From NCBI RefSeq assembly GCF_018977255.1, contig NW_024704959.1:1-64000 (forward strand): 64,000 nucleotides of DNA. The letters are read 5' to 3'. Shown here one piece after another: positions 3,268-56,122 of the stretch. The DNA comes from Callorhinchus milii (taxonomy: Eukaryota). Numbering within the stretch: the stretch's first letter is position 1; the number at the start of each line of letters is the position of its first letter. Position numbers and translations under genes: made by a program. The notes under the pieces are model-generated. The model saw only the letters and a list, made by a program, of their open reading frames with translations. It ran no database searches and was not told where the DNA came from.

Positions 3268-3821
3268 TGAAGTACCGGTGAAGGACGCCTCTGACACCCG
3301 AGGTTGAGGCACACGTGTATTTATTTTAACAGTACACAGTGGCATATAACACTCGAGGGGGTATCGGCCCCCTCACCCGTATAACTGGGGATACACCCTA
3401 GCTATCCCTGACCTACCCCCGGAGTCCTCCACTAACGGGCTAGGGGAGGCTGTCTGGCCCGACACTGGCGAGTCGGGCTACGGTACCCGGAGTCCCAGAG
3501 TGCTGACTCTGGTTCACGGGACCACGCCGCTGGCTCGGTCCTGCCGCGGCCCTGACAAGGGCGGCGTCTCAGGGGAGTCCAGGGCTCTAGCTACCCGGGT
3601 CTTCAGTCTTCCCTTCTCGTTCTAATACTGAGCCCCGAGCTCTCTCTGTCATCCCCTTTTATATCCCCCAGGATCACAACCCCGGGCAGCCCTACCCCCA
3701 GGCTGCCCGATGCGGACGTCGTTGCGGGCACCCCCCCCCCGTGTACTCCCGGAGCTCCGCCCACTGTGTTTGTTCGCCGTTTGATCCTATGTACAAACAG
3801 CCCCTCGATAACAGCCCTACA
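3268..3821 (-). mobile_element. Solo LTR, family A
   Basis: TG...CTACA termini and TSD CATG. Homologous in reverse complement to 48590-49165. Confidence 0.8.
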
Positions 3822-3825
3822 CATG

Positions 3826-4315
3826 TGTAATAAAGGTCGTGAAAGCGCTTCTGGAATCCGGTCTTTATTTGTCTTTCTTTACAACACTCCTTCACGCTGC
3901 TGATAGACAGCGTGAGAGGGATAGAGAGAGAGAGAAACGCACGCAGCCACGTGGCAGCCTGGGACCCCCTCTCGCGTGGCCTTTCCCTCCGTTCGTTCCA
4001 GTTCTGACCACGTGTTGTTCGTCTCCACCCTATTTAATACCCGGGTCACGTGGTACCTTTCCACCAATCCTGGTTAGCCTCTATGGAATCTTCCAGACTC
4101 CATCGTAGGCTCCCGGGACCACGCCCCTGACTCGTCCCCCATTGGCTGTGGCTAAAGCCAGCAGAACCAATCCTCTACTTACAGATGTCACCTTCCCATT
4201 ACGTCAGGGCCACGCCCCTAGGCTTCCCCCCATTGGCTATGGACCAGGACCGGCAGAGCCAATCATCGTGACGAGTTGTGATCCGTCAGCGACCCGGATA
4301 TATCCTCACATTACA
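3826..4315 (-). mobile_element. Solo LTR, family B
   Basis: TGTAAT...ATTACA perfect terminal inverted repeat and TSD CATG. A second copy lies at 19235-20634. Confidence 0.9.
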
Positions 4316-6809: not shown

Positions 6810-7066
6810 AAATGTATCAATCTTTGGAGGAACGAATATGAAGCCTGAGGCCTAGGTGTATACCAGGCCTGCAGAGGAGGAGGGTTCCTCATCAATTACT
6901 TTTAATAGTCATAGATTGGTAGTGATGGGAAGATGTAATGATTGAGTGTGGCAGAGAGCGTGGGTTTAGATCCGAGTTTCAGCCATCATTGCTTAAACTG
7001 GGGTCTCAATACTCTGGTTCTTTCGGTAAAGTCACGTAGCTAGAAATACATTAAAATGAAACAAAT

Positions 7067-7107
7067 CACGACGTTTCGATTGCAACACAAGCAACCATCA
7101 TCAGGTG
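7067..7107 (-). ncRNA. Type I hammerhead ribozyme core in the PLE pLTR
   Basis: Reverse complement reads CAC-CTGATGA-TGGTTGC-TTGTGTT-GCAATC-GAAACGTC-GTG. Confidence 0.85.
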
Positions 7108-7724
7108 TGAAAACCACAGCAAGAATGTTTTTTTGCTGAAGTGGGAGAGAACTGCCGTGGCAAGAGGTTTCTAGATAAGAAGGGGCAAGGGGAGAGAGAG
7201 AGAGGGGGAGGGTACAAGGAGGGGTGCGCTGCGTGAGCGCGAGGAGAGGGCACGTGAGGCTGGGGGGAGGGGGGAAGTGGGCGGGGCTGGAAGTGGGAGG
7301 CCGAGAAAGCTGGAGATGCAGGGGGGGGGGAATTAACTCTGAAAAAATTAACCCGTAAAAACAAAGTTTTTCACTATAAATCCTTTATATGCGTGGCGGC
7401 TAGAGTCCTCTCGTCCTCTGGCTTGAGATGGCTGCCACCTATGGTCAGATGATTGCTTGCCACCATTAAGCAATTGGTAATTAAATATAATTTTTTTCCT
7501 AAAAAGTGTAACATTTTGGAAAAATTTTTCACGAAAATTAATTGTCACGCACAACGAGTCTGTGTGCAAAATGTCAGCTCGATTGGATCACGGGAAGTGG
7601 GTAAAAAAACGACCAAAAGATTTGCACGGTCGTAAGCGCGCAAGCAAGTGAACTTAATATAAAGGATTTAAAAATAGACTAGTACCCGGCAGATATGATA
7701 CACACAACCATAAAGCAGTTACGG

Positions 7725-10000
7725 TTTTACCTGGTTAATGACATCCTTCCAATGATTGCTCAATTTGTATCCATATTCTCGGTTGAAGTTACGTCTGTTT
7801 ATATATCTGGATGACTTCATGAACAAACCTTTGATAGTAGCCAGAAGGTTTGCAGAGTACCTTGGTCTCGGAAAAAACAATATCATGCGTGCCCACAGCG
7901 TTATAACAATGGTCAGCCTCGGCAGAGGTATTGATTCTGTCGTGTTTCAGATCTGCCTTGTGTTCGCGGACACAGTCCGAGACATGTCGTTTCGTTTTCC
8001 AAATGTAACTGCGACCGCAGGTACAACTCATTTGTAAACTCGAGTATATTGCATGTCAGGAATGGCATCCTTCACAGATGGGATTAGATCACGGATTTTG
8101 TGTATTGTATTGAATCGGACCTGGATCTTGTATTTGTTTAAGATTTTGGAAATATTTTGGTAACACCTGCTATGTATGGTAACATGATGGTTTTTATCGG
8201 CTTCTCAGGGGTTGTTTCTCCATGGTTGGAGAAACATCTTTGCGAATAATGCGGTCCGAGTACCCATCAATATTGAGGGCCTGGTGTACGTGTTCCAGTT
8301 CACCGGCTAGGTGGTGTTAGTCGGAAATGCAGTGTGCCCTGTGGTGTAGTGTTTTGATGAGGGAATTATTCTGTGCCGGATGGTGGTGGGAATCAGGTTT
8401 CAGATAGGAATCTGTGTGGGTGGCTTTTCTGTAGACAGTGTCCCAACGAGCCATTTGGTCTCTTCTCAAACAAAACATCCAGGAATGGTAGCTTAACGTC
8501 TTTCTCCACTTCCATGGTGAATTTGATGGACGGGTGTATGGAATTGATGTGGTTGAGAAATTGGTTTAAAGCTGGCAGGCCATGTGGCCAAATGACGAAA
8601 GTGTCATCTACATATCTCTTCCACAAGGAAGGACGTAGGGTGGATGTCTGGATGGCATCTGTTTCAAATTTCTCCATGAAAACATTCACTATCACTGGTG
8701 ATAAGGGGGAACCCATGGGGGTACCTTCATTTTGTTTGTATAAAGTACCATTCCAGGTACAGTAAGTGTGGTAAGGCAGTGCCTAACCAGAGTAGGTACA
8801 TCAGGATTCAGTCCATGTTGGACAAAGTATTCAATCATTGCTAAGGTGTCAGGTACAGGAACTTAATGAACAGAGAAACTACATCAAAGCTGACGAGCAA
8901 ATCATCTGGGGACAGTGAAATGTCCTTGATTAGAGAGACCAAGTGAGCTGAGTTATGTACTGCTAAGGTAGTCTTGCCTGTGTATGGAAGCAAGGTATCA
9001 GACAAAAAACGGGCCAGTTTGTAGGTAGGTGAGTTGATAGTGGAAACGATGGGCCGAAGTGGAGTACCTTCTTTATGGATTTTTGGAAGACCATAGAATC
9101 TGGGTAATCTAGTAGCAGAAGGTTTTAGGGAGAGCCGTTTGAAAGGTTTGATTAGAAAAGTCGAACTGGTAGTGATATTGTTGTTTTTGTAGCCAGACGG
9201 TTGGTAGGATCTTTGTTTTGGTGTAACTGCCATCATTAAGGTCCTGGATTTTGTTGTTGTATGTGGTTTCATCCATGATAACAGTAGCATTGCTCTTGTC
9301 GGCTGGGTGGATGACTGTCATCTATTTTTTTCAATTTGGTGAGTTCAGAGTGCTCGTCTTTGCTGATGTTACTAATGGGTTGCTTAGCATTTTTAAGGAT
9401 GGTGGCAATTTCAGATCCTGCCACATCTGTCGGGATGTGTCCCAAGCCTTTGAGGGCTACATCTACCTGGGCAATTAAATAATGAACTGGTGTTTGGGGG
9501 TGACAGCAAAATTCAGCCCTCGAGCTAGTACCGATTTTAGGCTATCGGAGATTGTACTGCTACTCTAATTGATAAGTCTTGTTAACATCTAGCTTTTTAA
9601 TGTAGATCTGGTTTCTTTTTTGACAAGTTATTGAATTTAGCAATAAGGTTAACCTTACATTTGGAGGACATTGTTGTGGCAGAAGAAGCAGTCATGCTAT
9701 CTACAAGGTTCCAATCAAATGCGGACATTTTATGTTAATGTTAAGTGTGATTGTAGGAGACATGTCTAAATGATCAAGTTCAAGACGGAGTAGTCTTATC
9801 CTGAGATTAGAGAAAGGCTAGCTCTTGAATAAAATCCGTTTGACGTTAGAAGTGAGAGAAGCAGATGTGAGTGCAAATGTGGTAGGTATTACCTTGTCAC
9901 GGCATCTCTTCAGAAAGGTGAGAGACTCGATCATGTGAGCCTTCTGTCTCGTAGTCTGTTAAAAGCTCTCACAGATGTGTGAAAACCCTCCCCGTATAGG
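7725..10000 (-). pseudogene. Frameshifted PLE reverse transcriptase plus GIY-YIG endonuclease
   Basis: Motifs PADKSNATVIM, FYGLPKIHKEGTPLRPIVS, VSFDVVSLF, MGSPLSP, RYVDDTF, IKFTMEVE..LPFLDV and the GIY-YIG-like CTCGRSYI.KTKR, spread over several frames. Confidence 0.93.
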
Positions 10001-10263
10001 TGGTTCAATCTTGATTTAAAGTTTCGTGACTGCAGGAATCCATACTCTTTGGTTCTTTCGCTAAAGTCACGTAGTTAGAAATAAATCCAGAAACATAAAC
10101 AGACATAACTTCAACCGAGAAGATGGATACAAATTGAGCAATCATTGGAAGGATGTCATTAACCAGGTAAAACCTAACTGATTTATGGTTGTGTGTATCA
10201 TATCTGCCGGGGTACTAGTCTATTTTAAATCCTTTATATTAAGTTCACTTGCTTGCTTGCTTG

Positions 10264-10694
10264 TGTAGTGGGTTCGAATTAGGTGCACACACACGCAGCT
10301 TGGAGGCAACACTATTTATTAAACGGTAATATAACACTGTACATGAGGTGGTGACCACCTTCCTCAACTCACTAACACTCTGGAACACGACACAGACTGG
10401 ACCAGGCAGGCAACGGTCTGCCTGGCCCAGGACGACGACCCGATGATGTCTTCACTTCGGAGTACAACAGCCTCGCTCTGCGTTCATACCACGCTTATAT
10501 CTCCTCTGGCGTGGCCGGCTCCGCCCAGGCGTGGCTGGCTCTGTCCAGGCCACGCCTCCCTTCCCAGGCCACGCCTCCTTCCCCCACCTCTGGGAAGGTC
10601 CGGGTCCCTCCACCACGTGACCCCCCAGGCACCCCCTTGGGGCCCCCAGCCCTCGTACGGGCCGACACAGTAGTGACCGTTGTATGTCACTACA
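10264..10694 (-). mobile_element. Solo LTR inserted in the PLE arm
   Basis: TGTAGTG...CACTACA termini and TSD CTTG. Absent from the opposite PLE arm. Confidence 0.9.
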
Positions 10695-12105
10695 CTTGCG
10701 TGCTTGCTTGCTTGCTTACGACCGTGCAAATCTTTCGGTCGTTTTTTAACCCACTTCCCGTGATCCAATCGAGCTGACATTTTGCACCAGACTCGTTGTG
10801 CGTGACAATTAATTTTCGTGAAAAAAAATTCCTAAATTTTACACTGTTTAGGGAATTTTTTAAAATATTTAATTACCAATTGCTTAATAGTGGCAGACAA
10901 TCATCTGGCCCATAGGTGGCAGCCATCTCAAGCCAGAGGACAAGAGGACTCTAGTCGCCCGTTTCATGATGACGCAAATGTTGACTAACCACATGGCATG
11001 AAATCCCTGCCCCACGCTGTACAATGGAGACTATATAGAGCAGTTAAATTGAAGCCGCCAGGTTCTTGAAAGTGGTAAAAGGGTCAACGCTAGTGCCCTC
11101 GGGAATATACGGGGCATGTCAAGAGGTGATCTTTCATTTTTAAATCATTTATATTAACTTCACTTGCTTGCTTGCTTACTCAAGAAAAACAGAAATGAAT
11201 AATAAATTGAAACCGATGCCACGCATATGAAGGATTATAGTGAAAAACTTAGTTTTTACGGGTTAATTTTTTTCCGAGTTAATTTCCCCCTGCATCTCCA
11301 GCTTTCTCGGCCTCCCACTTCCAGCCCCGCCCACTCCCCCCCCAGCCTCACGTCCCCTCTCCTAGCGCTCACGCAGCTCTCTCCTCCCCCTCCCTCTCTC
11401 TCCCCCCATTGCTCCTCCCCTCTTCTTACCTATATAACCTCTTGCCACAGCAGCTCTCTCTCCTGCTTAAGCAAACATTGTTTTCTTGCTGTGGTTTTCA
11501 CACCTGATTTCAATGGAAATGGATTTCAATTGCTTGTGTTTCAATGGAAACGTCGTGATTTGATTTATTTTAGTTTATTTCTAACTACGTGACTTTAACG
11601 AAAGAACCAAAGAGTATGGGTTCCTGCAGTCACGAAAGCTTCAAATCAAGACTGGGATCTCAAGTTCATAGAATTTATGGTCTCACCATGCTCACAAAAA
11701 TACTGCCACGTGATGAATATTTCTCAATAGCAGCTCCTGTTGTGTGGTAAGAGCTAATTACAGGGATCTCAGAATTAGTTGCGTGAAACTCCATGTGCTT
11801 CGTTCTTTAATTTATTACTCGCCCTTTGAATACATTTTCTGTTTTCTGTAGCCCGGGAGTCGTGGCGCCAGTCGACCACGTGGGGAGACATTATGGATAA
11901 AGTGGACTCTTTCCCAGGACAAAGTTACGAGAATTGCTCCCCAGGGGTCTATGGGGGTCAAACACACCACATTATCTCCATACCATCACACCAAACTATC
12001 ACTACACCTCACATCACCACACTATCTCTCCACATCACCTTTCCCATCACACCACACTACCACCAACTCAAAACACCATCATAGAGGCTCATCATGCCTC
12101 TACAT

Positions 12106-12396: not shown

Positions 12397-12661
12397 GCAA
12401 GTGTGCATCCGTTAGTCTAGATCTGGTTGGAGATTTCAAATCTTCTTGGTTCTTTCGGTAAAGTCACGTAGAAGGAAGTAATAAAATAATAAAAATAAAA
12501 CATAAAAATAAAATAATATTTAAATAAAAGAATATTTATTTTATTATGTTTTATTTTTATTATTTTATTACTTCCCTTCTACGTGACTTTACCGAAAGAA
12601 CCAAGAAGATGAATCCCTGCAGTCACGAAAGCTTTAAATCGAAATTTAATACAATAATTCT

Positions 12662-12702
12662 CACGACGTTTCGGCCACAACGCAAGCAGCCGTCCTCAGG
12701 TG
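12662..12702 (-). ncRNA. Type I hammerhead ribozyme core
   Basis: Reverse complement reads CAC-CTGAGGA-CGGCTGC-TTGCGTT-GTGGCC-GAAACGTC-GTG. Confidence 0.85.
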
Positions 12703-13103
12703 AAGAACATGTCTGTCGATAAGACAGAGTCTAAATGACACGTCTTAGGCTTGGAGTGTCTATTTAAGCTGTGAGGGAGGAGGAAGAGAGCCTTGACAAA
12801 AATAATTTGCATTTGAAGAGGAATTTAGCATATTTATGGGAAATGCAGGAATGCGAATAGTGCTAATTGTGAAATGCGTGGGAGGTGGGCGGGGGTTTTC
12901 AAAGTCATATTATGCCCCGTGCATTATGCAGGATTAGCAGCATCACAGGGAGGGGGCAGGGCAGCACCAACAAAGGGAAGGAATGTGAATAGTATGCAGC
13001 TGCAGCAACTAAACAACCACGTAAAAACTAAAGTATAAACTTCATAGCATCATCAGTATACTAAATCTTTCTGACAGAGCGTCTTTCTGACAGACCTGTT
13101 CTT

Positions 13104-13144
13104 CACCTGAGGACGGCTGCTTGCCTTGTGGCCGAAACGTCGTG
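13104..13144 (+). ncRNA. Type I hammerhead ribozyme core
   Basis: CAC-CTGAGGA-CGGCTGC-TTGCCTT-GTGGCC-GAAACGTC-GTG. Confidence 0.85.
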
Positions 13145-13379
13145 AGAATTATTTTATTATGTTTTATTTTTATTATTTTATTTCCCTTCTACGTGACTTT
13201 ACCGAAAGAACCAAGAAGAGTAAATGTAGATGTTTGCATCCGTACATAGATTTGTGAGTATGCATTTGTGTTTGGGTTTATGAGCACGTCCATGTTTACA
13301 TGCCTGTGGGTATGCATTTTTGCTTGCATGTGCATGTCTGAATGTTTATTTGCTTATCTTTGCTCGAACAGAGGAGCAT

Positions 13380-17371: not shown

Positions 17372-17640
17372 AACCGTATATAGCCCTCACGAGACTTTTA
17401 GGGAAAGTGTTGTAGCAAGCACGCTACGAAGCGGGTGGCCAGCACAACGTTCGACCACCTTTCAATCCCTAGTGGCGATGTTTACACAGCACGCCATGTA
17501 CTCCTTTAAAGTTGAGTCGACCTAGGGGAGGCCCAAGACCAAATCAAATAATCGTCACTGCGATCAGCCATAGGTGGGATCCAAAATCGGGTCAACGGGT
17601 TCGTAGCCCAGAGCAGTAATCGCTATGCCACCACTCCCCA
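17372..17640 (-). mobile_element. tRNA-derived SINE, degenerate; further fragments at 17660-18115
   Basis: Shares TGAGTCGACCTAGGGGAGGCCCA and ATAATCGTCAC blocks with the copy at 35441. Confidence 0.75.
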
Positions 17641-18319
17641 CATACAGACACCTACAAAAACAAAGATCCCCTTTATAGCTTTAACAAACTGTTGAGGCAA
17701 GTGCCTTTAGTGAGCAACACCTATGAAGGCTGAGACGGCGCACGAAGGGGTGGGTGGACAGCACCACGCCCCAACGCCGTTGTCACCGGAGTGCTGATTG
17801 TGACACACCACACTGAGGAGAGGCCTAAGCCCAGTTCATATCAATCACCACCGAAATTAAACGTTAGCCGTGACAGCAATCAAACTTGGGCTCCCAGGTT
17901 TGTAGCTCAGCGCCCTAACCACTGCACTACCGCTCTTCACGCAGACAACCGGGTTGGTGGGTCCAACCTGACTCGGAGTAAAACAAGTACCTGATGCGGT
18001 GCGTAAACACACGTACCTTAAAGACATAGAAAATCTGGCGTGGTGCTGGCCACAGCCCTGATGCACCGTGCCGGCCTTCATGGTGCTCGCTAACAGCACT
18101 TGCCAACACAGGACTGCTGCTTGCATGCTCACCATGCCTGGGTACAGGGGGTGACATGCTTCCTCACGCGGCTCCTCCCCCGGCCCAGCCAGCGCCCTGT
18201 GGGGCCGAGACTCGCAGCGCCGGCGTCACGCGATGCTCCGCCACCACCACCACCACCAGCTGTGCCAATGTGCGATTTGCGATGGAGTGGCAGAGGACCT
18301 AGGGCTTTGTTACAAACAC

Positions 18320-18720: not shown

Positions 18721-19737
18721 TGTCATAAGAGGAGTCAGATGTAAAACTTCCGGTTGAGTTTGAAGGCGTCGGGGGGCCCACACTGTGATTTGCCCCAGGC
18801 CTAACACCCTGTATGGACAGCCTTGTGTTATATTTTTTAGTCTGCCACATGCCTTTGCCACACATAATATGGATAATAAAATAAGACCATCACAGGACTG
18901 TGTAGGGCCTGGGGTTTGAGGCCGCATGTAGCTCTCCTGAAGTGCTTTCGGGTTGAACCGGCGTGTTGTTCGGAATACTTCAGTGTTGACGACGGGAGGA
19001 TGAGCCAGCAACTGTGAGACAGACCCGGATAAGTGTGGGTGGAGGTGAGTGTGACAGTAAGACAGACCAAGGTGAGCGTGGGAAGAGTGAGTGTGGACAG
19101 TGAGACAGATCCAGGTGAGTGAGTGTGGGTAGAAAGGTGAGTGTGACAGTGAGACAGACCCAGGGTGAGTGAACGTGGTAGAGAGGTGTGACAGAGACAA
19201 ATCCAGATGAGTATGGGTAAGACAGGAGTGTAATTGTAATGTGAGGATATATCCGGGTTGCTGATGGATCACACCTCGTTACGATGATTGGCTCTGCCGG
19301 TCCTGGCCCATAGCCAATGGGGGGAAGTCTAGGGGCGTGGCCCTGACGTAATGGGAAGGTGACATCTGTAAGTAGAGGATTGGTTCTGCTGGCTTTAGCC
19401 ACAGCCAATGGGGGGACGAGTCAGGGGCGTGGTCCTGGGAGCGTACGATGGAGTCTAGAAGATTCCATAGAGGTTAACCAGGATTGGTGGAAAGGTACCA
19501 CGTGACCCGGGTATTAAAAGGGGTGGAGACGACAACACGTGGTCAGATCTGGAACGGAGGGTGAGGCCACGCTGGAGCGGGGTCCAGGCTGCCACGTGGC
19601 CGCGCGGTCTCTCCTCTCCCTCTCACGCTGTCTGTCGCGCGTGAAGGAGTGATGGGAGCATCTTCTTGGTTCTTTCGGTAAAGTCACGTAGAAGGAAGTA
19701 ATAAAATAATAAAAATAAAACATAATAAAACAATTCT

Positions 19738-19778
19738 CACGACGTTTCGGCCACAACGCAAGCAGCCGTCCTCAGGTG
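19738..19778 (-). ncRNA. Type I hammerhead ribozyme core
   Basis: Exact reverse complement of 20413-20453. Confidence 0.88.
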
Positions 19779-20412
19779 AAAACCAGGTCCGTCGAGGCGA
19801 CAGAGTCTGAATGAAACAGCACACGGCTTGGAGCATATATATAAGCTGGGCGCATTGACAAAGGAATTTGCATATCAACAGGAATTTAGCATATTTATGG
19901 GAAATGCAGGAATGTGATTAGTACTGCATATGCATGTGCATTATGCAGGATTAACAGCATCAAAGGGAGCTGCAGTTACTGCTGCTGCAGCAGTTGCTGC
20001 TGCTGCTGCAGTTTCTGCTGCTGCTGCAGTTGCTGCTGCTGCTGCAGTTGCTGCGCTGCTGCACTTGCTGCTGCTGCTGCACTTGCTGCTGCTGCTGCAC
20101 TTGCTGCTGCTGCTGCAGTTGCTGCCTTATCCATTTAATATAACACATGTATATCACCACCCAAGTGCTACCCACCCAATGGACAACTGCAGCAGCAACT
20201 GCTGCAGCAGCAGTAACTGCAGCTCCCTTTGATGCTGTTAATCCTGCATAATGCACATGCATATGCAGTACTAATCACATTCCTGCATTTCCCATAAATA
20301 TGCTAAATTCCTGTTGATATGCAAATTCCTTTGTCAATGCGCCCAGCTTATATATATGCTCCAAGCCGTGTGCTGTTTCATTCAGACTCTGTCGCTCGAC
20401 GGACCTGGTTTT

Positions 20413-20453
20413 CACCTGAGGACGGCTGCTTGCGTTGTGGCCGAAACGTCGTG
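20413..20453 (+). ncRNA. Type I hammerhead ribozyme core
   Basis: Stem I TTTTCAC/GTGAGAA, CTGAGGA, stem II GGCTGC/GTGGCC, GAAACGTC. Predicted cleavage after C20450. Confidence 0.88.
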
Positions 20454-20854
20454 AGAATTGTTTATTATGTTTTATTTTATTATTTATTACTTCCCTTCTA
20501 CGTGACTTTACCGAAAGAACCAAGAAGATGAATCCCTGCAGTCACGAAAGCTTTAAATCGAAATAAATGGAGTGTTGTGAACGAAAGACAAATAAAGACC
20601 AGATTCAGAAGTCGCTTCCACGACCTTTATTACATAAGTAAAGGTGAGTGTGATAAGGAGACAGACCCAGGTGAGTAAGTTTGAGTAGAGAGGTGTGACA
20701 AGGAGACAGGTCCATCACAACAGCAACTTTCATCAGTCACCTCCAACCACCACCACCATTGCATCATCATCTCAATCACTATGTTACAGTCATCACCATC
20801 ATCACACTGGAGCACTATTAGACATCACCACCATCATGCTCATCATCATATAAA

Positions 20855-21145
20855 AAAAGATCCCCCGTATATACTTAACTAACAGACTGTTGAGGCAAGT
20901 GCTGTTAGTGATCACCTATTAATGCCGGCACAGTACACGACGTTAGGTGGCCAGCAACACGCCTGGCAGCATTTTTCTCCCCAGTGGAGATGTTTACACA
21001 CCACACCACATACTCATTGGAGGCTGAGTCGACGTCGGGGAGGCCCAGGAACAGTTAAGATAATCGTCACTCTCGTTGGCCATGAGCAGAAATCGAATTC
21101 GGATCGATACATATGTTGCACAGCGCGTTAACCTCTACACTACCG
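20855..21145 (-). mobile_element. tRNA-derived SINE
   Basis: Homologous to 35441-35747. Confidence 0.8.
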
Positions 21146-22829: not shown

Positions 22830-23050
22830 AGGGTGTTGGCATTGCCCACATCAATATTAGAGGCCAGAAAGCAAAATTTGAGCAATTCAAGATTAATTCA
22901 ATCATCTTTATCCAGACATCTTCTGTCTGTCTGAAACATGGCTTACCTCACGTATAATTCCCTAGCCTAATAGAAATTTAAGGATGGAATATATGTTGAT
23001 GAGACGGGCAAACAAGAGGAGGAGGTGGTGGCAGTATATTTGAAAAGTAC
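22830..23050 (+). mobile_element. LINE apurinic endonuclease remnant
   Basis: IAHINIRG, PDIFCLSETWL and an RGGG-type motif in broken frames. Confidence 0.7.
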
Positions 23051-26000
23051 AAGTAAATTGTCCCTGTGCGAGTCTATGGGTCTCTGTGTGTGTCTATGTG
23101 TCTCTGTGTGATTCTATGGACAATGTGCAAGTAAATTGTCCCTGTGTGAGTCTATGGGTCTGTGTGTATGTCTATGTGTCTGTGTGATTCAATGGGTTTT
23201 TTCTGAAAGTATATTGTTTCTGTGTGAGGCTATGGGTTTCTGTGTGAGTCAATGGGTTTTTGTGAAAGTATATTGTTTCTGTGTGAGTCTATGGGTCTTT
23301 GTGTGAGTCAATGGGTGTCTGTGTGAGGCTGTGTCTGTGTGAGATTTTATGGGTCTATTTGCAAGTATATTGTCCCAGTGAGTGATATTGGGTTTCTGTG
23401 TGAGTCAATGGGTGTCTGTGTGAGGCTGTGTGTCTGTGTGTGAGTCTGTGTCTTAGTGCAAGTATATTGTCTTTGTGTGAGTTTATGGGTCTCTGTGTGA
23501 GTCTATGGGTCTCTATATGTGATTATATGGGTCTTTGTGCAAGTATATTATCTCTGTGTGAATCTATGAGTCGATGTATGTCTGTGTCTCTGTGTGATTC
23601 AATGGGTCTTTGTGAAAGTATATTGTTTCTGTGTGAGTCTATGGGTTTCTGTGTGAGTCAATGGGTGTCTGTGTGAGGCTGTGTGTCTGTGTATGATTCT
23701 ATGGGTCTTTGTGCAAGTATATTGTCCCTTTGTGAGTCTATTGTCTCTGTGTGAGTTAATGTCTGTGCGATTCTATGGGTCTTTTTGTAAGTATATTGTC
23801 CCTGTGTGTGTCCATGGGTCTGTGTGTGTATTTGTGTCTCTGTGTTATTCAATGGGTTTTGTGAAAGTATATTTTTCTGTGTGAGTCTATGGGTCTTTGT
23901 GTGAGGTTATGGGTCTCTGTGTGAGTCTATGGGTGTCTGTGTGAGTCTATGGGTGTCTGTGTGAGGCTGTGTGTCTGTGTGATATTTTATGGGTCTATTT
24001 GCAAGTATATTGTCCCAGTGAGTATTTGGGTTTCTGTGTGAGTCAATGGGTGTCTGTGTGAGGCTGTGTGTCTGTGTGTGAGTCTATGGGTCTTAGTGCA
24101 AGTATATTGTCTTTGTGTGAGTTTATGGGTCTCTGTGAGTCTATGGGTCTCTGTGATTATATGGGTCTTTGTGCAAGTATATTGTCCCTGTGTGAATCTA
24201 TGAGTCGATGTATGTCTGTGTCTCTGTGTGATTCAATGGTCTTTGTGAAAGTATATTGTTTCTGTGTGAGTCTATGGGTCTCTGTGTGAGGCTGTGTGTC
24301 TGTGTATGATTCTATGGGTCTTTGTGCAAGTATATTGTCCCTTTGTGAGTCTATTGTCTCTGTGTGAGTTAATGTCCTGTGCGATTCTATGGGTCTTTTT
24401 GTAAGTATATTGTCCCTGTGTGTGTCCATGGGTCTGTGTGTGTATTTGTGTCTCTGTGTTATTCAATGAGTTTTTGTGAAAGTATATTGTTTCTGTGTGA
24501 GTCTATGGGTCTTTGTGTGAGTCAATGGGTGTCTGTGTGAGGCTGTGTGGTTGTGTGAGATTCTATGGGTCTATTTGCAAGTATATTGTCCTGTGTGAGT
24601 CTTTGGGTTTCTGTTGAGTCAATGGGTGTCTGTGTGAGGCTGTGTCTGTGTGTGATTCTATGGGTCTTAGTGCAAGTATATTGTCTGTGTGTTTCGATGG
24701 GTATTTGTGTGAGTCAATGGGTGTCTGTGTCTCTGTGCGAGTCTGTGTCTCTGTGTTTGCCAATGTGTCTTCCTGTGATTCTATGGGTCTTTGGGCAAGT
24801 ATAGTCTTTGTGTGAGCTATGGGTCTCTGTGTGAGTCTATGGGTCTCTGTGTGTGTCTATGGGTATGTGATGCCGCCGCCACGAAGCCGTTCGGCAGGCG
24901 CCCAATCCCCGACCTCGCCACCACCAAGCAACGGAGCCGACCCCGCGTCCCCCCACCTCACCTCACATGAACACACCCGCACGCATTTTCCCCCCCCATA
25001 GAGCTGGAAGGGGAGATCACCTGATCGGCCGGTTTTTATCCGAGAAACCCTTATCGGGATTAACTCTCACGGTTTCCGGCGATCAGGGAATTGGACGACC
25101 TCCCCCGTGCTACGTTGCGCCGCGGCGCTGCGACTGGCCTTAGTGTGGTGTGGTCGCGGCGTGGGGCATTCGGCCACCGCGGTTGAGGCGCATTTCCCCC
25201 CACACACACCCCCACGGGTCGACGAGACAAGCAGGGGAAGGACGGGATAGCATGAGTAGCAGGACCGCAGGGGCTCTTGCGCATAGTCACGGAAGGTTGG
25301 GATGGTTGCGCTTGAGCGCGCAGGCCCCATTGTTAGGGAGGGTAAGGGATTAATTGGATTTACGCCGCGCACGCCGCACACTGATTAGCATATCAAAAGC
25401 GCCGTGGAGGCGCCGCGGAGCCCCGTGCGCGTGCAAGAGGTGCGCGAGCCATTGTTTGGAGTTTGCGCCGCGGGCAGACATTGATTCGGTCAGGCGCGGA
25501 GGTGGCGGAGGAGGGCGGCGATTGTTTAGAGTTTACGCGCGCGGACAGAGGATTAATTAGCATATGCGCCGCTCATGAGCGGAGGCCTTCGGGAGTACGG
25601 GACAGAGGATAAAAGGGATCGCAGCAAGGAGAGGCTCTCACTTCTCTTCAAGAGGCACGCGTGCAAGTCGGCTCCCAGCTCTGCCCTCCGGACGTCCGCG
25701 TGACGTGTCGCGACGGCATAGAGGAAAAGCCACAGGACGCCGAATACTTCTAACAGTGAGTAAGAAGGTGAATTAGAATCATAGCAGATAAATCGGGAAT
25801 AGGTATAAAGGTATCAGCGTAGGCCAGCCTCGTCGACTCACTGATTTAACATCTAATTCGCAGGTAGCAGATAATAAATCATTAATAGCGAAGCGTGGTC
25901 TCGCGTGATCTTGTTGAGCAGTGTGTCGCGTGGGGAGCTGCGTGTGTGTGCGTGCGTCCACCCCGTGTGCGATACAGGTGCGCGATCATAACGCGAGTAG

Positions 26001-27878
26001 TCAGGGGTGAGCGTAGTGCTGCGGCTCGCTCGGGGGAGCGCTGCGCAGAGGGCGCGAGAGTGGGTGTCGCGTGTGTTCACTCCGTGTGTGATACAGGTGC
26101 GCGATCATAACGCGAGTATTCAGTGGTGAGGGAGTGCCGCGGGGAGCTGTATGCGTGAGTGCGCATACGTTCGTTACGTGTCGGATACGGATGCGCATTG
26201 GTAACGTGGTTATTCGACGTGGAGGCGAGTGCCGCACAGGGCTATAGACGGGCACACGCTCGCAGCGTGCGAGAGCTGTACGTAGCGGTGTAAAGAGGGG
26301 GAGTGTGCGTCTGATTGATGATGCTGTGCGCACGTATGCTCGCAGCGTGGGAGCGCGGCGCGAGGCTGTAACAGTAGGGGCGTCGTGTTCGAATGCCGGC
26401 GAAACCGTAGCGGGTAATAAGGAGGTGGGGTAACGTAAATGGAATAGGGGATGCAGGCGGGAGGGACCCCGGGGGCCAACGGCCCCCACAGGTATATGTT
26501 TGAGTCTATGGGTCTCTGTGTGGGTGTATGGGTCTATGTGTGGGTGTATGGGTCTATGTGTGAGGTTATGGGTCTCTGTGTGAGTCTATGGGTATCTGTG
26601 TGAGTCTATGGGTGTCTGTGTGAGGCTGTGTGTCTGTGTGATATTTTGTGGGTCTATTTGCAAGTATATTGTCCCAGTGAGTGAGTATTTGGGTTTCTGT
26701 GTGAGTCAATGGGTGTCTGTGTGAGGCTGTGTGTCTGTGTGTGAGTCTATGGGTCTCTATGTGATTATATGGGTCTTTGTGCAAGTATATTGTCCCTGTG
26801 TGAATCTATGAGTCGATGTATGTCTGTGTCTCTGTGTGATTCGATGGGTTTTTGTGAAAGTATATTGTTTCTGTGTGAGTCTATGGGTCTCTGTGTGAGT
26901 CAATGGGTGTCTGTGTGAGGCTGTGTGTCTGTGTATGATTCTATGGGTCTTTGTGCAAGTATATTGTCCCTTTGTGAGTCTATTGTCTCTGTGTGAGTTA
27001 ATGTCCCTGTGCGATTCTATGGGTCTTTTTGTAAGTATATTGTCCCTGTGTGTGTCCATGGGTCTGTGTGTGTATTTGTGTCTCTGTGTTATTCAATGGG
27101 TTTTTGTGAAAGTATATTGTTTCTGTGTGAGTCTATGGGTCTCTGTGTGAGTCAATTGGTTTTTTGTGAAAGTATATTGTTTCTGTGTGAGTCTATGGGT
27201 CTTTGATTCCATGGGTCTATTTGCAAGTATATTGTCCCTGTGTGAGTCTTTGGGTATTTGTGTGAGTCAATGGGTGTCTGTGTCTCTGTGCGAGTCTGTG
27301 TCTCTGTGTTTGCCAATGTGTCTTCCTGTGATTCTATGGGTCTTTGGGCAAGTATAGTCTTTGTGTGAGTTTATGGGTCTCTGTGTGAGTCTATGGGTCT
27401 CTGTGTGTGTCTATGGGTATATGTTTGAGTCTATAGGTCTCTGTGTGGGTGTATGGGTCTATGTGTGGGTGTATGGGTCTATGTGTGAGGTTATGGGTCT
27501 CTGTGTGAGTCTATGGGTATCTGTGTGAGTCTATGGGTCTCTGTGGGATTTTTTTCTCTGTGTGTGTCATTGGGTCTCGGTGTCTATGGGTCTGTGTGCA
27601 AGTATATTGTCCCTATGTGGGTGTATGGGTCTCTGTGTGAGTCTATGGGTCGCTGTGTTAGTCTATGGGTCTTTGTGCAAGTATATTGTTTCTGTGCGAG
27701 TCTTTGGGTTTCTGTGCGAGTCAATGGGTGTCTGTGTGAGGCTGTGTGTCTGTGTGAGATTCTATGGGTCATTGTGCAAGTATATTGTTCCTGCGTGAGT
27801 CTTTGGGTTTCTGTGTGAGTCAATGGGTGTCTGTGTGAGGCTGTGTGTCTGTGTATGATTCTATGGGTCTTAGTGCAG
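23050..27878. repeat. Complex TG-rich satellite with higher-order blocks, interrupted by a solo LTR
   Basis: Units such as TGTGTGAGTCTATGGGTC and GCAAGTATATTGTC. Blocks of several hundred bp recur near 23300, 23950 and 26600. Confidence 0.95.
24866..26490 (+). mobile_element. 1.6-kb solo LTR related to the Gypsy element at 49295-57660
   Basis: TGTGATGCC...GGCCCCCACA termini and TSD GGTA. Long blocks are homologous to the reverse complement of 56123-57660. Confidence 0.93.
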
Positions 27879-28424: not shown

Positions 28425-29072
28425 AATCAACAATCCTTTTTTGGCCCAATATTGAATAATCCTTTGATAAACACATGCTTGGTTTTGTTTTTCCAAGCTA
28501 AGTCCCAAATAGCAATAGGATTCATACCAACCCCTCTTGTACATTTGATCACCTTTTCAAGTTGCTGCGATCCCCAGTCGGTCGCACAGAGGTGATGCGT
28601 AAAGTAAAGGCCGACCGAAATTCGGTTTCGGTGCCGAAAGTTGGCAAATGGCCGCTTTCGACATACGTTCGGTTTCGGCCGAAAGTACATTTTTTACTTT
28701 CGGTTTACTTTCGATTTCGGCCGAAACTGATATTGACTTTCGGTCAACCGAAGATCTATTTTTAGAATATAACGCTAGTGCTACGTTTATCTCTCTGCCT
28801 ATCGGCCGGTCAGTCGGCGCTAGGCAATCCTGCGATAGGCTGCAAAAACACATCAGCAGCAGCTTGGGAGCGAGGTTACAGCCGCAACGATGGTCTGTTA
28901 ATGTCAACAGACGGCAGCCTGCTTTTGCATCCGTGGGTGGAGTCTCTTTGGCGGGACGACAACAAAGTGCCGTTGTTGTCTGTTCCCAGCCGCCTGCCCG
29001 CCTTGGCTTATGTGTTGCGTTCTCTTCAGTCTACACGCGTGTTGATACCGAGATTCGAAGTCTGACAATATT

Positions 29073-29311
29073 CTTCTTGGTTCTTTCGGTAAAGTCACTT
29101 AGAAGGGAAGTAATAAAATAATAAAAATAAAACATAATAAAAAAATGAAGAATTCTTCACCTGAGGACAGCTGCTTGCGTTGTGGCCGAAACGTCGTGAG
29201 AATTATTTTATTATGTTTTATTTTTATTATTTTATTATTTCCCTTCTATGTGACTTTACCGAAAGAACCAAGAAGATGAATCCCTGCAGTCACGAAAGCT
29301 TTAAATCGAAA
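29073..29311 (+). mobile_element. ~240-bp PLE-derived mini-element with hammerhead
   Basis: Inverted short arm, hammerhead, then tail. 12-bp TSD TCTGACAATATT (29061-29072, 29312-29323). Confidence 0.9.
29158..29198 (+). ncRNA. Type I hammerhead ribozyme core (one stem II mismatch)
   Basis: CAC-CTGAGGA-CAGCTGC-TTGCGTT-GTGGCC-GAAACGTC-GTG. Confidence 0.75.
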
Positions 29312-29624: not shown

Positions 29625-30233
29625 CCTATATATAAAAAATGAAAATTTGTGAATGTGTCTGTTCAAAATGTTTAGCGTACTTCCCGACATGCAACAAACT
29701 TTAAATTTGCCATGTGGGTACTTTCCATACTGTACACCATGCATACACTTTGGTATTATTTTTTTGGGGGGGGGGGGGGTGCAATAATGCATATATTTTG
29801 CACGGCAAGCGAGCTGTGATGTCACATCTGTCATGTCACCCGCGCATGTGTAGAGCTTAGCGCTACGAACATGGCGTGGTGCTGGCCACCCACCCCCTCG
29901 TGTGCCATGCCGGCCTTCATAGGTACTCGCTAACAGCACTTGCCCCCTACAGTCTCACAGGCTACATGGTGGATTTTTGTCCTTATCCTGTGTGTATGTA
30001 GGGGGGGCAGCGACTGCGTAGCGATTCGCGCGCTGCGCTACGAACCCGACGACCCAAGTTCAATTCCCACTCATGGCCACCGCCGGTGACGATTATTTGA
30101 ACTGGTCCTGGGCCTCCCCTAGGTCGACTCAGCCTCAAACGAGTAAGTGGTGTGTCAACATCGCCACTGGGGAGACAAAGGCAGCCGGCCGTGGTGAATC
30201 CAAGTCCCGGGCGAAGCCGGGTAGTAAAGCTAG
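29625..30233 (+). mobile_element. Non-autonomous Helitron containing two SINE pieces
   Basis: 5' A|CCTATATATAAAAAATGAA (TC start altered). 3' hairpin CCCGG-GCGAAG-CCGGG followed by CTAG|T. Confidence 0.7.
29998..30196 (+). mobile_element. tRNA-derived SINE, 5' part; an internally deleted copy lies at 29851-29985
   Basis: B-box-like GTTCAATTCC and the GTCGACTCAGCCTCAAA core. Confidence 0.8.
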
Positions 30234-34340: not shown

Positions 34341-35440
34341 GATACTGGGCTGAGTGCATAAGCAACTGAAGTAGAATTGTGTTAAATAAAGTACATACAG
34401 TAAAAAACTCATGAAATAAACTTAAATGAAGAAAACTAGCAATAGAAACATGGGGAAAAACAAGCTCTCAGCATATAAAACAAGCAATGACATAATGCTA
34501 CGAAATGAAAGAATTACATAACACGACAATAAATGCCTTAACCCTCGTGGAGCTCAAGCGAGGCGTAAGGTTGCCCCTCGCCTTACGTCTCGCTCCACGG
34601 TATTCATCCGCAAACCTCACTGTGCTGCAATATTTGCGCTTACGTAATTAACGCAAGAATGTCTGAATATCGATGTTTTATTGTTACGTGATTTATGGAA
34701 GCATTCCCATTAGGTTAGATTTCCTCAAGTTAGATCTTTCGCAACCTGGGGACTGTCTGTACATGAAGGAAGATTCGCATTGCCGTTTACGACAGATGCT
34801 GGTTAGTGAAGAGCATTCCAGATTGTAGAATGCCGTATAACAATATATTTTCCTGTATTTTAATACATCTTTACTTTCCAACGATGTGCTGTACTAGTCA
34901 TGAATTGGCATGTTTTGGTTACGTGACAAACCTTACTAATTGACCGTATTGGGTGGTGCCGGGATTAACGACATTTATTATATTTACGCAATCTAACCCA
35001 AAAACCTCGATTATGGACATTGGTCGCGAAAGCCTGCTACATATTCAACTGACAGCTTGGTAGTGTACCATTAAAATGTCAAGCGGCAACATTTTCAAAA
35101 AGAGAAAGCGTACAAAAAAGATGGCATCATCGTTTGTCCCTCTCCGATTGCTTGCCAAATACAAGGAAACTATTGCAAACGTGGCAGTGAGTAAAACTCG
35201 TAACTGCAAATCACAGACAGAAGCAAGCGACATCTTGTGTCGTTGACTCGGATTCATCCATTCTGGTCCCTTGCAAAATGTTTTTGACAATGCCTGAAAA
35301 ACTTCGCTTTCACTGTTAACAAATAAATCTTTGGCTCATATTTGCAGGTTGTTTTATCCACTGCAGTAGCACCCAGTTACACCACTGGGGACTTCACACG
35401 AGACCAGCCGAGAGGCGTTTTGATAACACGTTCACATACA

Positions 35441-35747
35441 AAAGACAAAGATCCCCCGTGTAGCCTTAACAGACTGTTGGGGCAAGTGCCGATAGTGAGT
35501 AGCATCCATGAAGGCCGGCACGGCGCGAGAGGGTGTTTGGCCAACATCAAGCCCGGCCGCCTTTGTCTCCCCAGTGGCGTTGTTTACACACTGTACCAGG
35601 TACTCATTTGACGCCGAGTCAACTTTAGGGGAGGTCCAGGACTGGTTCATATAATCGTCACCAGTGTTGGCGGCCATGAGCGGGAATCGAACTCGTGTCG
35701 CCGGGTTCGTAGCGCAGCGTAGCGCTAACCGCTGCACTATTGTGCAC
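35441..35747 (-). mobile_element. Full-length tRNA-derived SINE (core resembles the Deu/Nin domain)
   Basis: Minus-strand tRNA-like head with GAGTTCGATTCC, then GACTCGGCGTCAAATGAGTACC and AAAGGCGGCCGG. Further copies at 36520-36665, 39116-39290 and 45820-45980. Confidence 0.85.
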
Positions 35748-37178
35748 ATGCAGGCAGATACAAACACCCTGACATACACACTCGTACACAACGTGGCCAT
35801 ACGACTGTCGTAGCTGTACCTTGCAGGTCGGGCACACAAACTCGCAGCCCGCGCGTGCCTTTGTCCTGCAGGCATGCTCCACACAAGACGCGTGTCCGCA
35901 CACCGGCAGCAGGTAGGGGCGGCTGCGTGACGCGTCCCAGGCTCCACTGGGAAACAGACATTTTTTAAAATCCCAACCAAGGCATGGGATCAGAACAAGT
36001 GCTAAGGCAGCACCTGACGCGCAAAGACAGCGTCGACTTTTCCCATTTGAAAGCGGCCACTCCTCGTCATCATCACAGATTAAGGGGTCTGTAATTATGA
36101 CGATAGACCTGATTTTCATTCAATCAGGTCTATAATTGAATGACAATCGTAGACCTGATTTTCATTCATTTAGGATTTTCTTTGGACGTCAGCTAATAAA
36201 GTAGATTATCGATTATTCGTGCTGACAGGGAGGACAGCCGCGGATAATTCAAAATCGCGGACATTAGATTACTTTTATTTAAACTATGAACTTCATACAT
36301 TAACAGTACATCTAGCAACTAATTTACCTGGTGGTATTGAAACAATTCTTACATGCTTGTGTTGAACCAATGCCGCTTGAAATGATACAACAGCAGGCGT
36401 TGACGATGAAAAGCGTAAAAAACTATTCTGAGTTTATTGTCCCTTATTTTATGGCCTGCTCAGATCTTCTTTCGGGGACTCAATTCGCTACTTTTAGCTC
36501 TGAACATCAAGCGTAGCGAGTGAGCCTCTATGAAGGCCAGCAGCGTGCTGTTAGTGGTCGTGTAAGCAGAATCACAGCCGTCTTTGTCTCCCGAATCTAC
36601 ACTCGCAATGAACCGAGTACTCATTTAAGGCCGAACTGACCTAAGGGAGGCTCCCAAGAATGGTTTATATTTCGAGTTGCCGCTGTTTCTCCCCGTCAGA
36701 AATTAAATTACCTTCACGCATCTTCATGTGGCGTCTCCTTGAGACGACTGTAACTGCACGAGCTAAAGGCGTGTCTTTCTGTAAGCGCCACACTGCCTTA
36801 CGCGAGACTTCAGTTTTACATTTTCCATCATCTACTCCTTTAACGGATGTAGAAATTTAAACTAACTTCTTTCGCACCGTACGTAGCCAATGGTGCTAAT
36901 CTGATGTGCGGAGCAAGAACAAACACTAAAACACAAAACGCACGCGCATGTAGGCCGTGCTATAAACAATTACCTTTGATTTCCTGTGCGGGCAAGGACG
37001 ATACAGTCCACTAAAACTACGAGCACGCGGCACACCACCAGCGGCCACGTCTCCTGCCGCGTGTGCAGGCGGTGCAACTGCACGGGCCCACACGGGCGGG
37101 GAGTTGCTGCAGTGCCATGCCACGTGGAGCAGAGGGGGGCATTGGCAGGCTTCATTCTTGTGTTTCTTGCACCAGAAC

Positions 37179-38966
37179 CAGACTCTCACACAGAGACCCA
37201 GACTACACAGAGACCTCACACAGAGACTCTCACACCAGAGACCCCAGAGACCTCACACAGAGACCCAGAGACTCTCACACAGAGACCCAGAGACCTACAC
37301 AGAGACCCAGAGACTCTCACGAACCAGAGACCCAGAGACTCTCACACAGAGACTCTCACACAGAGACCCAGAGACTCTCACACAGAGATTCTCACACAGA
37401 GACCCAGAGACTTACACAGAGACCCAGAGACTCTCACACAGAGACACTCACACAGAGACCCAGAGACTCTCACACAGAGACCCAGAGACTCTCACACAGA
37501 GACCCTCACACAGACTCTCACACAGAGACCCTCACACAGAGACCCTCACACAGAGACTCTCACACAGAGACCCTCACACAGAGACCTCCACGAGACCTCA
37601 CACAGAGACCCTCACACAGAGACCCTCACACAGAGACCCCAGAGACTCTCACACAGAGACCCTCACACAGACCTCACACAGAGACCCTCACACAGACTCT
37701 CACACAGAGACCCTCACACAGAGACTCACACAGAGACCCTCACACAGAGACCCAGAGACTCTCACACAGAGACCCAAAGACTCTCACACAGAGACCCAGA
37801 GACCCTCACACAGAGACCCAGAGACTCTCACACAGAGACCTCACACAGACTCTCACACAGAGACCTCACACAGAGACCTCACACAGAGACCCAGAGACTC
37901 TCACACAGAGACTCACACGAGACCAGAGACTCACACAGAGACTCACACAGAGACTCCACACAGAGACTCACACAGAGACTCACACAGAGACTCACCAGAG
38001 ACCTCACACAGAGACTCACACAGAGACCCAGAGACTCACACAGAGACTCACACAGAGACCCAGAGACTCACACAGAGACTCACACAGAGACCAGAGACCT
38101 CACACAGAGACTCAGAGACTCCACCAGAGACTCACAGAGACCCAGAGACTCTCACACAGAGACTCAGAGACTCTCACCCAGAGACTCAGAGACTCTCACA
38201 CAGAGACCCTCACACAGAGACTCACAGAGAGACTCTCACACAGAGACTCAGAGACTCTCACCAGAGACTCAGAGACTCTCACCCAGAGACTCTCACACAG
38301 AGACCCAGAGACTCTCACCCAGAGACTCTCACACAGAGACCAGAGACTCTCACACAGAGACCCAGAGACTCTCACCCAGAGACTCTCACACAGAGACCCA
38401 GAGACTCTCACCAGAGACCAGAGACCTCACCAGAGACTCAGAGACTCTCACACAGAGACTCACACAGACTCTCACACAGAGACTCACACAGACTCTCACA
38501 CAGAGACTCAGAGACTCTCACCCAGAGACTCTCACACAGAGACCCAGAGACTCTCACCCAGAGACTCTCACACAGAGACCCAGAGACTCAGAGACTCTCA
38601 CACAGAGACCCAGAGACTCTCACCCAGAGACTCTCACACCAGAGACTCTCACACAGAGACTCACAGACTCTCACCAGAACAGAGACCAGAGACTCTCACA
38701 CAGAGACTCCAGAGAACTCTCACACAGAGACTCAGAGACTCACAGAGAGACTCTCACACAGAGACCTCACAAGAGGACCCTCACACAGAGACTCCACACC
38801 AGAGACTCTCACACAGAGACTCAGAGACTCTCACCCAGAGACTCAGAGACTCTCACCAGAGACTCTCCACCAGAGACTCTCACCCAGAGACTCTCACCAG
38901 AGACTCTCACAGAGACTCACACAGAGACTCTCACAGAGAGACTCACACAGAGGCCCAGAGACTCAC
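37179..38966. repeat. GAGACTCTCACACAGAGACCCA-type satellite
   Basis: Mixed tandem units of about 8, 14 and 22 bp. Confidence 0.97.
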
Positions 38967-39286
38967 GCGGCAGCGACTCCGTGAGCAGTGATGGCGGCGC
39001 GAGACCGCGCGCGCTGGGTGACACCACGTGGTGCTGACACCACGTGCCGAGTGCGCACGCCGAGTCACGTGGGGGCGGGCGGCCATCTTACCTGGGGACA
39101 GTGCTGCACTGTAACAGTGGGGAGCGGCGGTGCAGCGGTTAGCGCGGCGCTTTGTGTAAACATCGTCACTAGGGAGACAAAGGCGGCCGGGCGTGGTCCT
39201 GGCTACCCACTCCCTCGTGTGCCGTGCATAGGTGCTCGCTAACAGCACTTGCCCCAACAGTCTGTTCAGGATATACGGGGGATCTT

Positions 39287-42200: not shown

Positions 42201-42812
42201 TGAGTCTGTGTGAGTGGTGGTGAGTCTGTGTGAGTGTGTGAGTCTGTGTGAGTGTGTGAGTGAGTGAGTCTGTGTGAGTGTGTGAGTCTGTGTGAGTGAG
42301 TGAGTCTGTGTGAGTGTGTGAGTCTGTGTGAGTGGTGAGTGAGTGAGTCTGTGTGAGTGTGTGAGTCTGTGTGAGTGAGTGAGTCTGTGTGAGTGTGTGA
42401 GTCTGTGTGAGTGTGTGAGTCTGTGTGAGTGTGTGAGTGAGTGAGTCTGTGTGAGTGAGTGAGTCTGTGTGAGTGAGTGAGTCTGTGTGAGTGTGTGAGT
42501 CTGTGTGAGTGTGTGAGTGAGTGAGTCTGTGTGAGTGAGTGAGTCTGTGTGAGTGAGTGAGTCTGTGTGAGTGTGTGAGTCTGTGTGAGTGAGTGAGTCT
42601 GTGTGAGTGTGTGAGTCTGTGTGAGTGTGTGAGTCTGTGTGAGTGTGTGAGTGAGTGAGTCTGTGTGAGTGAGTGAGTCTGTGTGAGTGAGTGAGTCTGT
42701 GTGAGTGAGTGAGTCTGTGTCAGTGAGTGAGTCTGTGTGAGTGTGTGAGTCTGTGTGAGTGAGTGAGTCTGTGTGAGTGAGTGAGTCTGTGTGAGTGTGT
42801 GAGTCTGTGTGT
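39287..42812. repeat. ~18-bp satellite GAGTCTGTGTGAGT(GA/GT)GT
   Basis: 3.5-kb homogeneous array; source of the >1100-aa THS pseudo-ORFs. Confidence 0.98.
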
Positions 42813-56120: not shown

Positions 56121-56122
56121 TT

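Follow-up and report, generated by a model that had tools for sequence, protein, structure and literature searches.

A stretch of 64,000 nucleotides of the Callorhinchus milii genome (RefSeq assembly GCF_018977255.1, contig NW_024704959.1, positions 1 to 64,000), hereafter called the window, contains a palindrome of about 0.9 kb with a hammerhead motif on each strand. The question raised by this locus is whether such a palindrome is a mobile unit in its own right or the product of the insertion of another element. The second answer is favoured, with a probability of roughly 85%: the insert would consist of two head-to-head 3' ends of an abundant repeat, laid down by one recent, 5'-truncated insertion of an endonuclease-bearing (EN+) PLE, and its hammerheads would be passengers of the pseudo-LTR, predicted to be silenced in a hairpin.

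The insert interrupts a solo LTR whose termini read TGTAAT...ATTACA, with an AATAAA some 40 nt short of the 3' terminus (Table 1). An uninterrupted paralogous solo LTR is found at 3826-4315(-), matching both flanks of the insert with 90-91% identity and containing the hexamer GGAGTG only once. Thus, the two GGAGTG copies bordering the insert are a true target-site duplication (TSD), and the earlier note was right in describing an insertion of about 0.9 kb into an LTR with this hexamer duplicated. The two LTRs have distinct surroundings, with CATG/CATG around the paralog versus TAAT/TAAG around the insert-bearing copy. A second LTR-like stretch (3600-3825), 68% similar to 48743-49082, adjoins the paralogous solo LTR via a common CATG junction.

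Table 1. Features of the insert, of its host LTR and of related PLE copies in the window
Feature	Position	Strand	Remarks
Solo LTR hosting the insert	19235-20634		two halves flank the insert
Host solo LTR, 5' part	19235-19651	+	starts TGTAAT, ends with the first TSD copy; 90% identity to 3882-4315(-)
TSD, left copy GGAGTG	19646-19651	+	single in the paralogous empty site
Insert	19652-20568		between two GGAGTG copies
Filler of 7 nt, TSD to left arm	19652-19658		absent from the empty LTR and from the right arm
Left arm, longer 5'-truncated PLE 3' end	19659-20125	-	CAG tract, 3'-UTR-like body, pseudo-LTR
Minimal type I hammerhead, left arm	19731-19784	-	core from 19775, predicted cut after 19741
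TATA-like element, left arm	19835-19843	-	outward-pointing; sequence element, putative pseudo-LTR promoter by analogy with the available text of PMC3846280
Central spacer, locus-specific filler of 58 nt	20126-20183		no second copy in the window
Right arm, the same PLE 3' end in a shorter 5'-truncated copy	20184-20530	+
TATA-like element, right arm	20349-20357	+	66 nt before the hammerhead core
Minimal type I hammerhead, right arm	20407-20460	+	core 20416-20422; features as in the available text of PMC4209133
Right-arm helix I	20409-20415/20451-20457	+
Right-arm extra C20423 and helix II	20424-20429/20437-20442	+	6 bp
Right-arm GAAACGUC	20443-20450	+	predicted cut after C20450
One-sided tail	20531-20568	+	34 nt (20531-20564) plus 4 nt
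TSD, right copy (20569-20574), and LTR remainder	20569-20634	+	91% identity to 3826-3890(-)
Decayed coding PLE, related subfamily	7009-11647	-	same fold-back layout and related tail
Compound fold-back, same subfamily	12440-13219		cores 12699(-) and 13107(+); no clear TSD
Short fold-back of 240 bp, same subfamily	29072-29311	+	12-bp TSD, one-sided tail, junction unlike that of the insert

The inverted arms of about 340 bp had been described as near-identical, and the alignment of 19659-20003 with 20189-20530 agrees, as 341 of 346 columns are identical and the remainder consists of five single-base gaps, with no substitution at all. The ends of the palindrome are asymmetric, a feature that the earlier note had overlooked. 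Indeed, 38 extra nucleotides (the 34-nt tail plus 4 nt) stand on the right only and the 7-nt filler on the left, where the arm stops at a short 3' end devoid of tail. The tail has an ATG at its start, and its homologue is the stretch located just before the ORF body of the coding PLE of the window, at 10006-10040(-). Such asymmetric ends appear diagnostic of a PLE-type insertion. The TATA-like element of the related subfamily stands 72 nt before its core, a spacing close to that of the right arm, and family contigs extend upstream of 20189 into the CAG tract.

The absence of a credible ORF from the insert is confirmed. Two frames of 104 amino acids over the CAG tract gave no Pfam match at cut-off and were rejected as genes. 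When the insert was compared by blastx with 120 PLE-type proteins, no match was obtained either. An exact search of metagenome contigs with a 24-base stretch of the tail gave 0 matches, and a scan for bacterial promoters and terminators, a method not applicable to this DNA, stayed at chance level.

Each arm bears an intact CUGAGGA...GAAACGUC motif, with C17 at 20450 (+) and 19741 (-). The features that define a minimal hammerhead are present in both arms: CUGANGA, GAAA, NUH, an extra base at 9/10.1, a G10.1-C11.1 pair and palindromic positions 15.2-16.2. The last three, together with the lack of a loop III and the 6-bp helix II, are shared with the minimal hammerheads of metazoan PLEs as characterised in the available text of PMC4209133; the motifs of the insert belong to a different sequence family. 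The earlier proposal of a PLE origin, with a minimal type I hammerhead and a palindromic ACGU, stands. So does the count of seven cores in the window, found at 145(-), 7104(-), 12699(-), 13107(+), 19775(-), 20416(+) and 29161(+), whereas 100 Markov resamples gave 0.14 on average and never more than 2. There are two further, degenerate cores, close to 4462(-) and 11505(+). The two cores of the insert stand 641 bp apart on opposite strands, and dual minimal hammerheads separated by some 100-700 bp on opposite strands have been reported and considered as probably derived from PLEs that were truncated (Cervera and de la Pena 2014, PMC4209133, in the part available).

A search with hammerhead models, suggested in the earlier note, did not add support, as the Rfam scan of the insert yielded no hammerhead family at E<=1. 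Its 14 matches (isrG, miRNA precursors and others) all fall below the gathering score, reflect hairpins or CAG repeats and were discarded. Covariation support is weak: in an alignment of helices I and II with 6 distinct sequences, 91.7% of cells are paired with two compensatory pairs, a value reached by 42 of 500 shuffles, and slid controls show 25-63% of cells paired. A conserved ACGU near 20498 was weighed as a possible in-cis partner of helix III but discarded, since a G follows it and the strand is non-complementary; it is also disfavoured by the folding, where the predicted competitor of the core is an AU-rich stretch.

The window includes one coding relative, the decayed element at 7009-11647. 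[quoted passage not shown] An inverted truncated copy, 10085-11647(+), precedes the ORF, the tail is one-sided and the TSD is of about 13 bp with one mismatch. RVT_1 was detected in one of nine scanned pieces (E 2.4e-8), and the element is collinear with the lamprey protein P0005, in which RT is followed by a GIY-YIG match just under the cut-off. It is probably of the Penelope/Poseidon-type clade, judging by this domain order and by motifs. Its RT piece shows 75-88% identity to proteins of lampreys and elephant shark and at most 64% to the other matches listed (120 proteins), a pattern that may hint at horizontal transfer between the lamprey and elephant shark lineages.

Outside this single coding copy, tblastn gave 0 matches in the window, and no ORF of the insert's own subfamily was found. 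No ORF is expected in the longer arm, because the family sequence that it retains upstream of its hammerhead amounts to about 350 nt, versus about 620 nt in the coding relative. Two further fold-back copies of the subfamily occur. The short one at 29072-29311 has a mutated closing pair in helix II, and the compound one at 12440-13219 probably includes a nested short copy at about 12518-12645. In the latter, a short tailed copy is apparently inserted in the AT-rich stretch just after the hammerhead of another copy, and similar tail-to-AT-stretch joints are seen in family reads. Arm length and junction thus vary from one copy of the window to the next, as does the TSD, of 6, 12 and about 13 bp in three of the four insertions examined. 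A one-sided tail is common to the insert, to 29072-29311 and to 7009-11647.

Other repeats of the window are of different kinds. A Gypsy-type LTR retrotransposon at 49312-57660 is judged very young: over 1533 nt its LTRs are 99.9% identical, and an open frame of 1662 codons (51077-56065(-)) contains domains of RT, RNase H and integrase. An older related LTR stands at about 24949-26490. Dispersed repeats of about 300 nt occur in both orientations (17434-18111, 20847-21142, 29873-30196, 35433-35767 and 39153-39289) and form a family that looks SINE-like by size and spread. GT-rich minisatellite arrays with units of about 20 nt, at 23046-27877 and 36966-42936, yield long spurious open frames.

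The behaviour of the family beyond this contig was examined in public sequence data. Four of 24 listed runs were aligned to 20126-20720 at 88% likeness, namely two DNA contig sets (X1 and X2) and two raw poly(A) RNA runs (X21 and X24), while X17-X20, of small word share, were left aside. With a best share of words of 0.65, the four may stem from another individual or another species. The spacer segment 20126-20165 has a depth of 0 in all four runs, a zero that taken by itself is weak evidence, some records having been filtered from the alignment. Depth rises toward the 3' end by 309-fold in X1, 75-fold in X2, 287-fold in X21 and 17-fold in X24, contig depth sums not being copy numbers. Among the 15 joints listed, beyond which 530 more rows exist, eight switch strand, all at different places and none at the junction of the insert, and no listed piece of the four runs bridges the junctions of the insert. 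Loose 3' ends of the family cluster at 20528 and at 20559-20564, which correspond to the short and the tailed ends. Other joints go back, linking the end of the tail with the AT-rich stretch that follows the hammerhead, as would fit an insertion of the element into its own pseudo-LTR. As regards RNA, 87-92% of aligned reads continue into unlike sequence, almost none of them into the LTR, in poly(A) libraries that would miss RNA circles. In X2, the LTR end with its flanking satellite (20611-20720) is found with 0 differences at a contig depth of 391 but without the insert spacer; the insertion may be polymorphic, or the flank may be multi-copy.

This organisation corresponds to what is known of PLEs. 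According to the available parts of Craig et al. (PMC8557442), PLE insertions are strongly 5'-truncated, and many of them include an inverted truncated copy as well as a tail of 30-40 bp on one side. Arkhipova et al. (PMC3846280, in the accessible part) describe the same layout, with TSDs of 8-10 bp, a pseudo-LTR TATA box and a tail overlapping the ORF start. The insert resembles the endonuclease-bearing PLE insertions of both papers by its head-to-head copies, its tail at one end, its short and variable TSD and its TATA-like element in the pseudo-LTR, and those of PMC3846280 by a tail that overlaps the ORF start region. It departs from the published insertions, as far as the available text describes them, in that both copies are truncated before the ORF and joined by 58 nt of non-family filler, and in that its arms are unusually long and free of substitutions. 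The features of EN+ PLE insertions that were found are thus a hammerhead in the pseudo-LTR, an inverted truncated copy with a one-end tail, a variable TSD and a 3'-biased abundance; RT with a C-terminal GIY-YIG was found for the related subfamily at 7009-11647, and no ORF was found in the window for the subfamily of the insert itself. The Poseidon element PAc of Anolis offers a further parallel in the accessible part of its description (Frangieh et al. 2024, PMC11167929), as it also displays two 3' ends separated by about the length of the tail and joints into the AT-rich stretch of its own pseudo-LTR. The ORF of PAc starts at helix II, whereas in the present family the candidate ATG would lie where the tail begins, some 80 nt farther downstream.

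A mechanism can be proposed on this basis. The GIY-YIG endonuclease of a PLE is the likely agent of a cut in the solo LTR with a 6-nt stagger, the TSD being observed. The PLE RT would then likely have copied the 3' end of its RNA twice, either by fold-back priming or onto both target strands. It would start at two nearby internal sites, in keeping with the two ends seen in family reads and with a chemistry demonstrated in vitro for the anole element, where RT starts at two internal sites (PMC11167929, in the part available). Such a choice between two starts would explain why one arm ends at 20530 and the other carries the 34-nt tail. Both copies would have stopped before the ORF and been joined through the locus-specific filler, and the product would be a dead-on-arrival stub rather than a self-propagating unit.

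The earlier note had instead viewed the palindrome as a non-autonomous PLE family, MITE-like or retrozyme-like. On such a reading, the whole 0.9 kb would be an amplified transposition unit, mobilised in trans by the proteins of a PLE or by a transposase. Arms without substitution, a clean TSD and the lack of an ORF speak in its favour, and non-autonomous PLE derivatives do exist (PMC8557442; bioRxiv 10.64898/2026.07.22.740005; both in their accessible parts). Nevertheless, this reading is very improbable. No amplified palindrome is seen, since the spacer has zero depth in four of four runs although the arms are extremely abundant, and since the abundant 3' end folds back at many points; the data hence argue against an amplified unit bearing the spacer. 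A constant TSD length is a feature of MITEs, whereas no uniform unit emerges here, the spacer being at depth 0, the junctions many and the TSDs of 6, 12 or about 13 bp. The ends of the insert are asymmetric, unlike the symmetric short terminal inverted repeats of MITEs (PMC5172404, in the part available). The comparison with non-LTR retrozymes goes further, as these are also non-coding and PLE-related, with type I hammerheads and TSDs above 4 bp (PMC7229834; bioRxiv 10.64898/2026.07.22.740005; available parts of both). According to the same sources, the units of retrozymes, of 150-450 bp, are repeated head-to-tail in tandem, their hammerheads are mostly canonical and the monomers released are circular, whereas the insert has its copies head-to-head and a single minimal motif on each strand. 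Because of this head-to-head layout, without two hammerheads on one strand, the insert is not a retrozyme, and since each strand carries a single sense hammerhead, cleavage could release no monomer. The alternative outcome envisaged in the earlier note, with every copy a unique truncation product of coding PLEs, largely describes what was found, as copies differ in length, junction and TSD.

Two other explanations deserve consideration. The subfamily itself could be an ORF-less, SINE-like PLE derivative made of a body and a pseudo-LTR and mobilised in trans, the insert being a one-off fold-back product of it. No coding sequence is tied to the subfamily in the window, a CAG tract and a non-coding body lie upstream of the hammerhead, and the family is very abundant, all of which would suit such a derivative; it is still unlikely, given that the arm is too short to reach an ORF (about 350 nt versus about 620 nt in the coding relative) and that the tail, with an ATG at its start, has its homologue in the stretch preceding the ORF of the coding copy. 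An assembly artefact, produced by a fold-back chimeric read, would account for a spacer unseen in both DNA contig sets and for arm differences limited to single-base gaps, of the kind expected from sequencing errors. It is hardly credible, however, for a palindrome whose flanks are continuing LTR halves with a TSD, matched by an empty paralog, whose tail asymmetry fits PLE biology, and whose family shows fold-back joints in independent reads. By the structural features tested, the insert belongs to the known inverted insertions of PLEs and is neither a MITE nor a retrozyme.

The fate of the hammerheads in such a PLE insertion depends on how its RNA folds. The predicted fold of the full insert reaches about -725 kcal/mol, with an unpaired probability of 0.0 for the core on both strands. 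In read-through transcription, the antisense arm is made first, and the RNA is predicted to form a duplex of about 345 bp burying its one sense hammerhead. Self-cleavage of transcripts from either strand, as put forward earlier, is therefore unlikely for read-through RNA, since the core is paired in the predicted fold. Transcripts starting inside the arm at the TATA-like element would escape the duplex; in their predicted fold, helix I has a probability of about 0.4, in competition with a hairpin into which the core is drawn. Cofolding of two monomers gives a duplex with helices I and II swapped, the program being unable to model the catalytic dimer. In the available text of PMC4209133, minimal PLE hammerheads show no cleavage as monomers and low cleavage as dimers, and cleavage by the PAc hammerhead needs the PAc protein (PMC11167929, accessible part). 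Cleavage at C20450 would accordingly call for a transcript start inside the arm and either a second ribozyme or a PLE protein. The two poly(A) RNA-seq runs, which are a weak test, show no pile-up of read starts or ends at C20450 or elsewhere, and PAc likewise shows no RNA-seq ends at its cleavage site (PMC11167929, in the part available). An intron starting just after the cut site was also looked for, and no such skip appears among the joints listed.

The family RNA carries a mark expected of long duplexes. Of the varying places, 139 in X24 and 105 in X21, A>G and T>C changes together account for 93 and 47, respectively; the two DNA contig sets give 7 of 35 and 9 of 46 (Fisher p 2e-8 to 1e-2), RNA and DNA being unmatched by individual. 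Among the 40 rows listed, beyond which 146 more exist, 11 of 12 A>G sites of X24 vary in one read direction only (15-81% vs 0-4%), and three of eight T>C sites are confined to the opposite direction (70-77% vs 2%). Thirteen of the 14 strand-biased sites listed stay at or below 1.4% in both DNA sets, the remaining one, 20296, being at 12% in X2. ADAR disfavours a G as 5' neighbour, and such a G precedes none of these 14 sites, a 5' U being present at nine of them. One edited-like position, A20414, belongs to helix I of the hammerhead and is read as G in 783 of 2842 sense-direction reads of X24 and in about 27% of X21 reads. This signature is observed, and its likely cause is A-to-I editing of the family RNA by ADAR. 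C20227G, a variant that is not A>G, is likewise absent from the DNA sets, so that allelic variants can escape them. The dominant RNA in X24 presents a 45-nt skip (20357-20403) just upstream of the hammerhead on one arm, with 565 versus 12 reads by direction. Since this skip is absent from the insert locus, the dominant edited RNA comes from another copy; this highly expressed and heavily edited RNA is likely a fold-back copy within a host transcript. The earlier suggestion that a fold-back dsRNA masks the ribozyme thus gains support for the family, both from a core predicted to be fully paired and from the editing-like signature.

Editing of palindromic repeats is known (PMC5625713), and Penelope and Harbinger are among the most edited repeats of Xenopus tropicalis (PMC10636886), according to the accessible parts of these papers. 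The present family resembles the ADAR-edited inverted repeats described there by its repeat-derived long duplexes and its clustered A>G changes, and differs from them in that the duplex stems from the fold-back insertion of the PLE itself and that an edited site lies in helix I of the hammerhead. In the open-access literature, no report tying a fold-back PLE duplex or hammerhead masking to ADAR was found. A broader view, which we regard as speculative and rather doubtful, is that PLE fold-back insertions might be for the host lineage the equivalent of inverted Alus: the antisense arm of each copy would mask its hammerhead and recruit ADAR to edit it, as a safety catch sparing host transcripts from thousands of ribozyme copies, and loss of ADAR or one-armed copies would unmask cleavage.

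As a locus, the insert is ordinary, being a young and unusually clean case of a published product of PLE insertion, and this makes it useful as a model for the origin of the fold-back and of the tail. The heavy editing of Penelope known from Xenopus tropicalis (PMC10636886, in the available part) limits the surprise of the RNA signature. If confirmed, editing of the family, hammerhead included, would tie the mechanics of PLE insertion to the dsRNA load of the cell, and the tolerance of a genome for thousands of ribozyme motifs in host transcripts would become testable.
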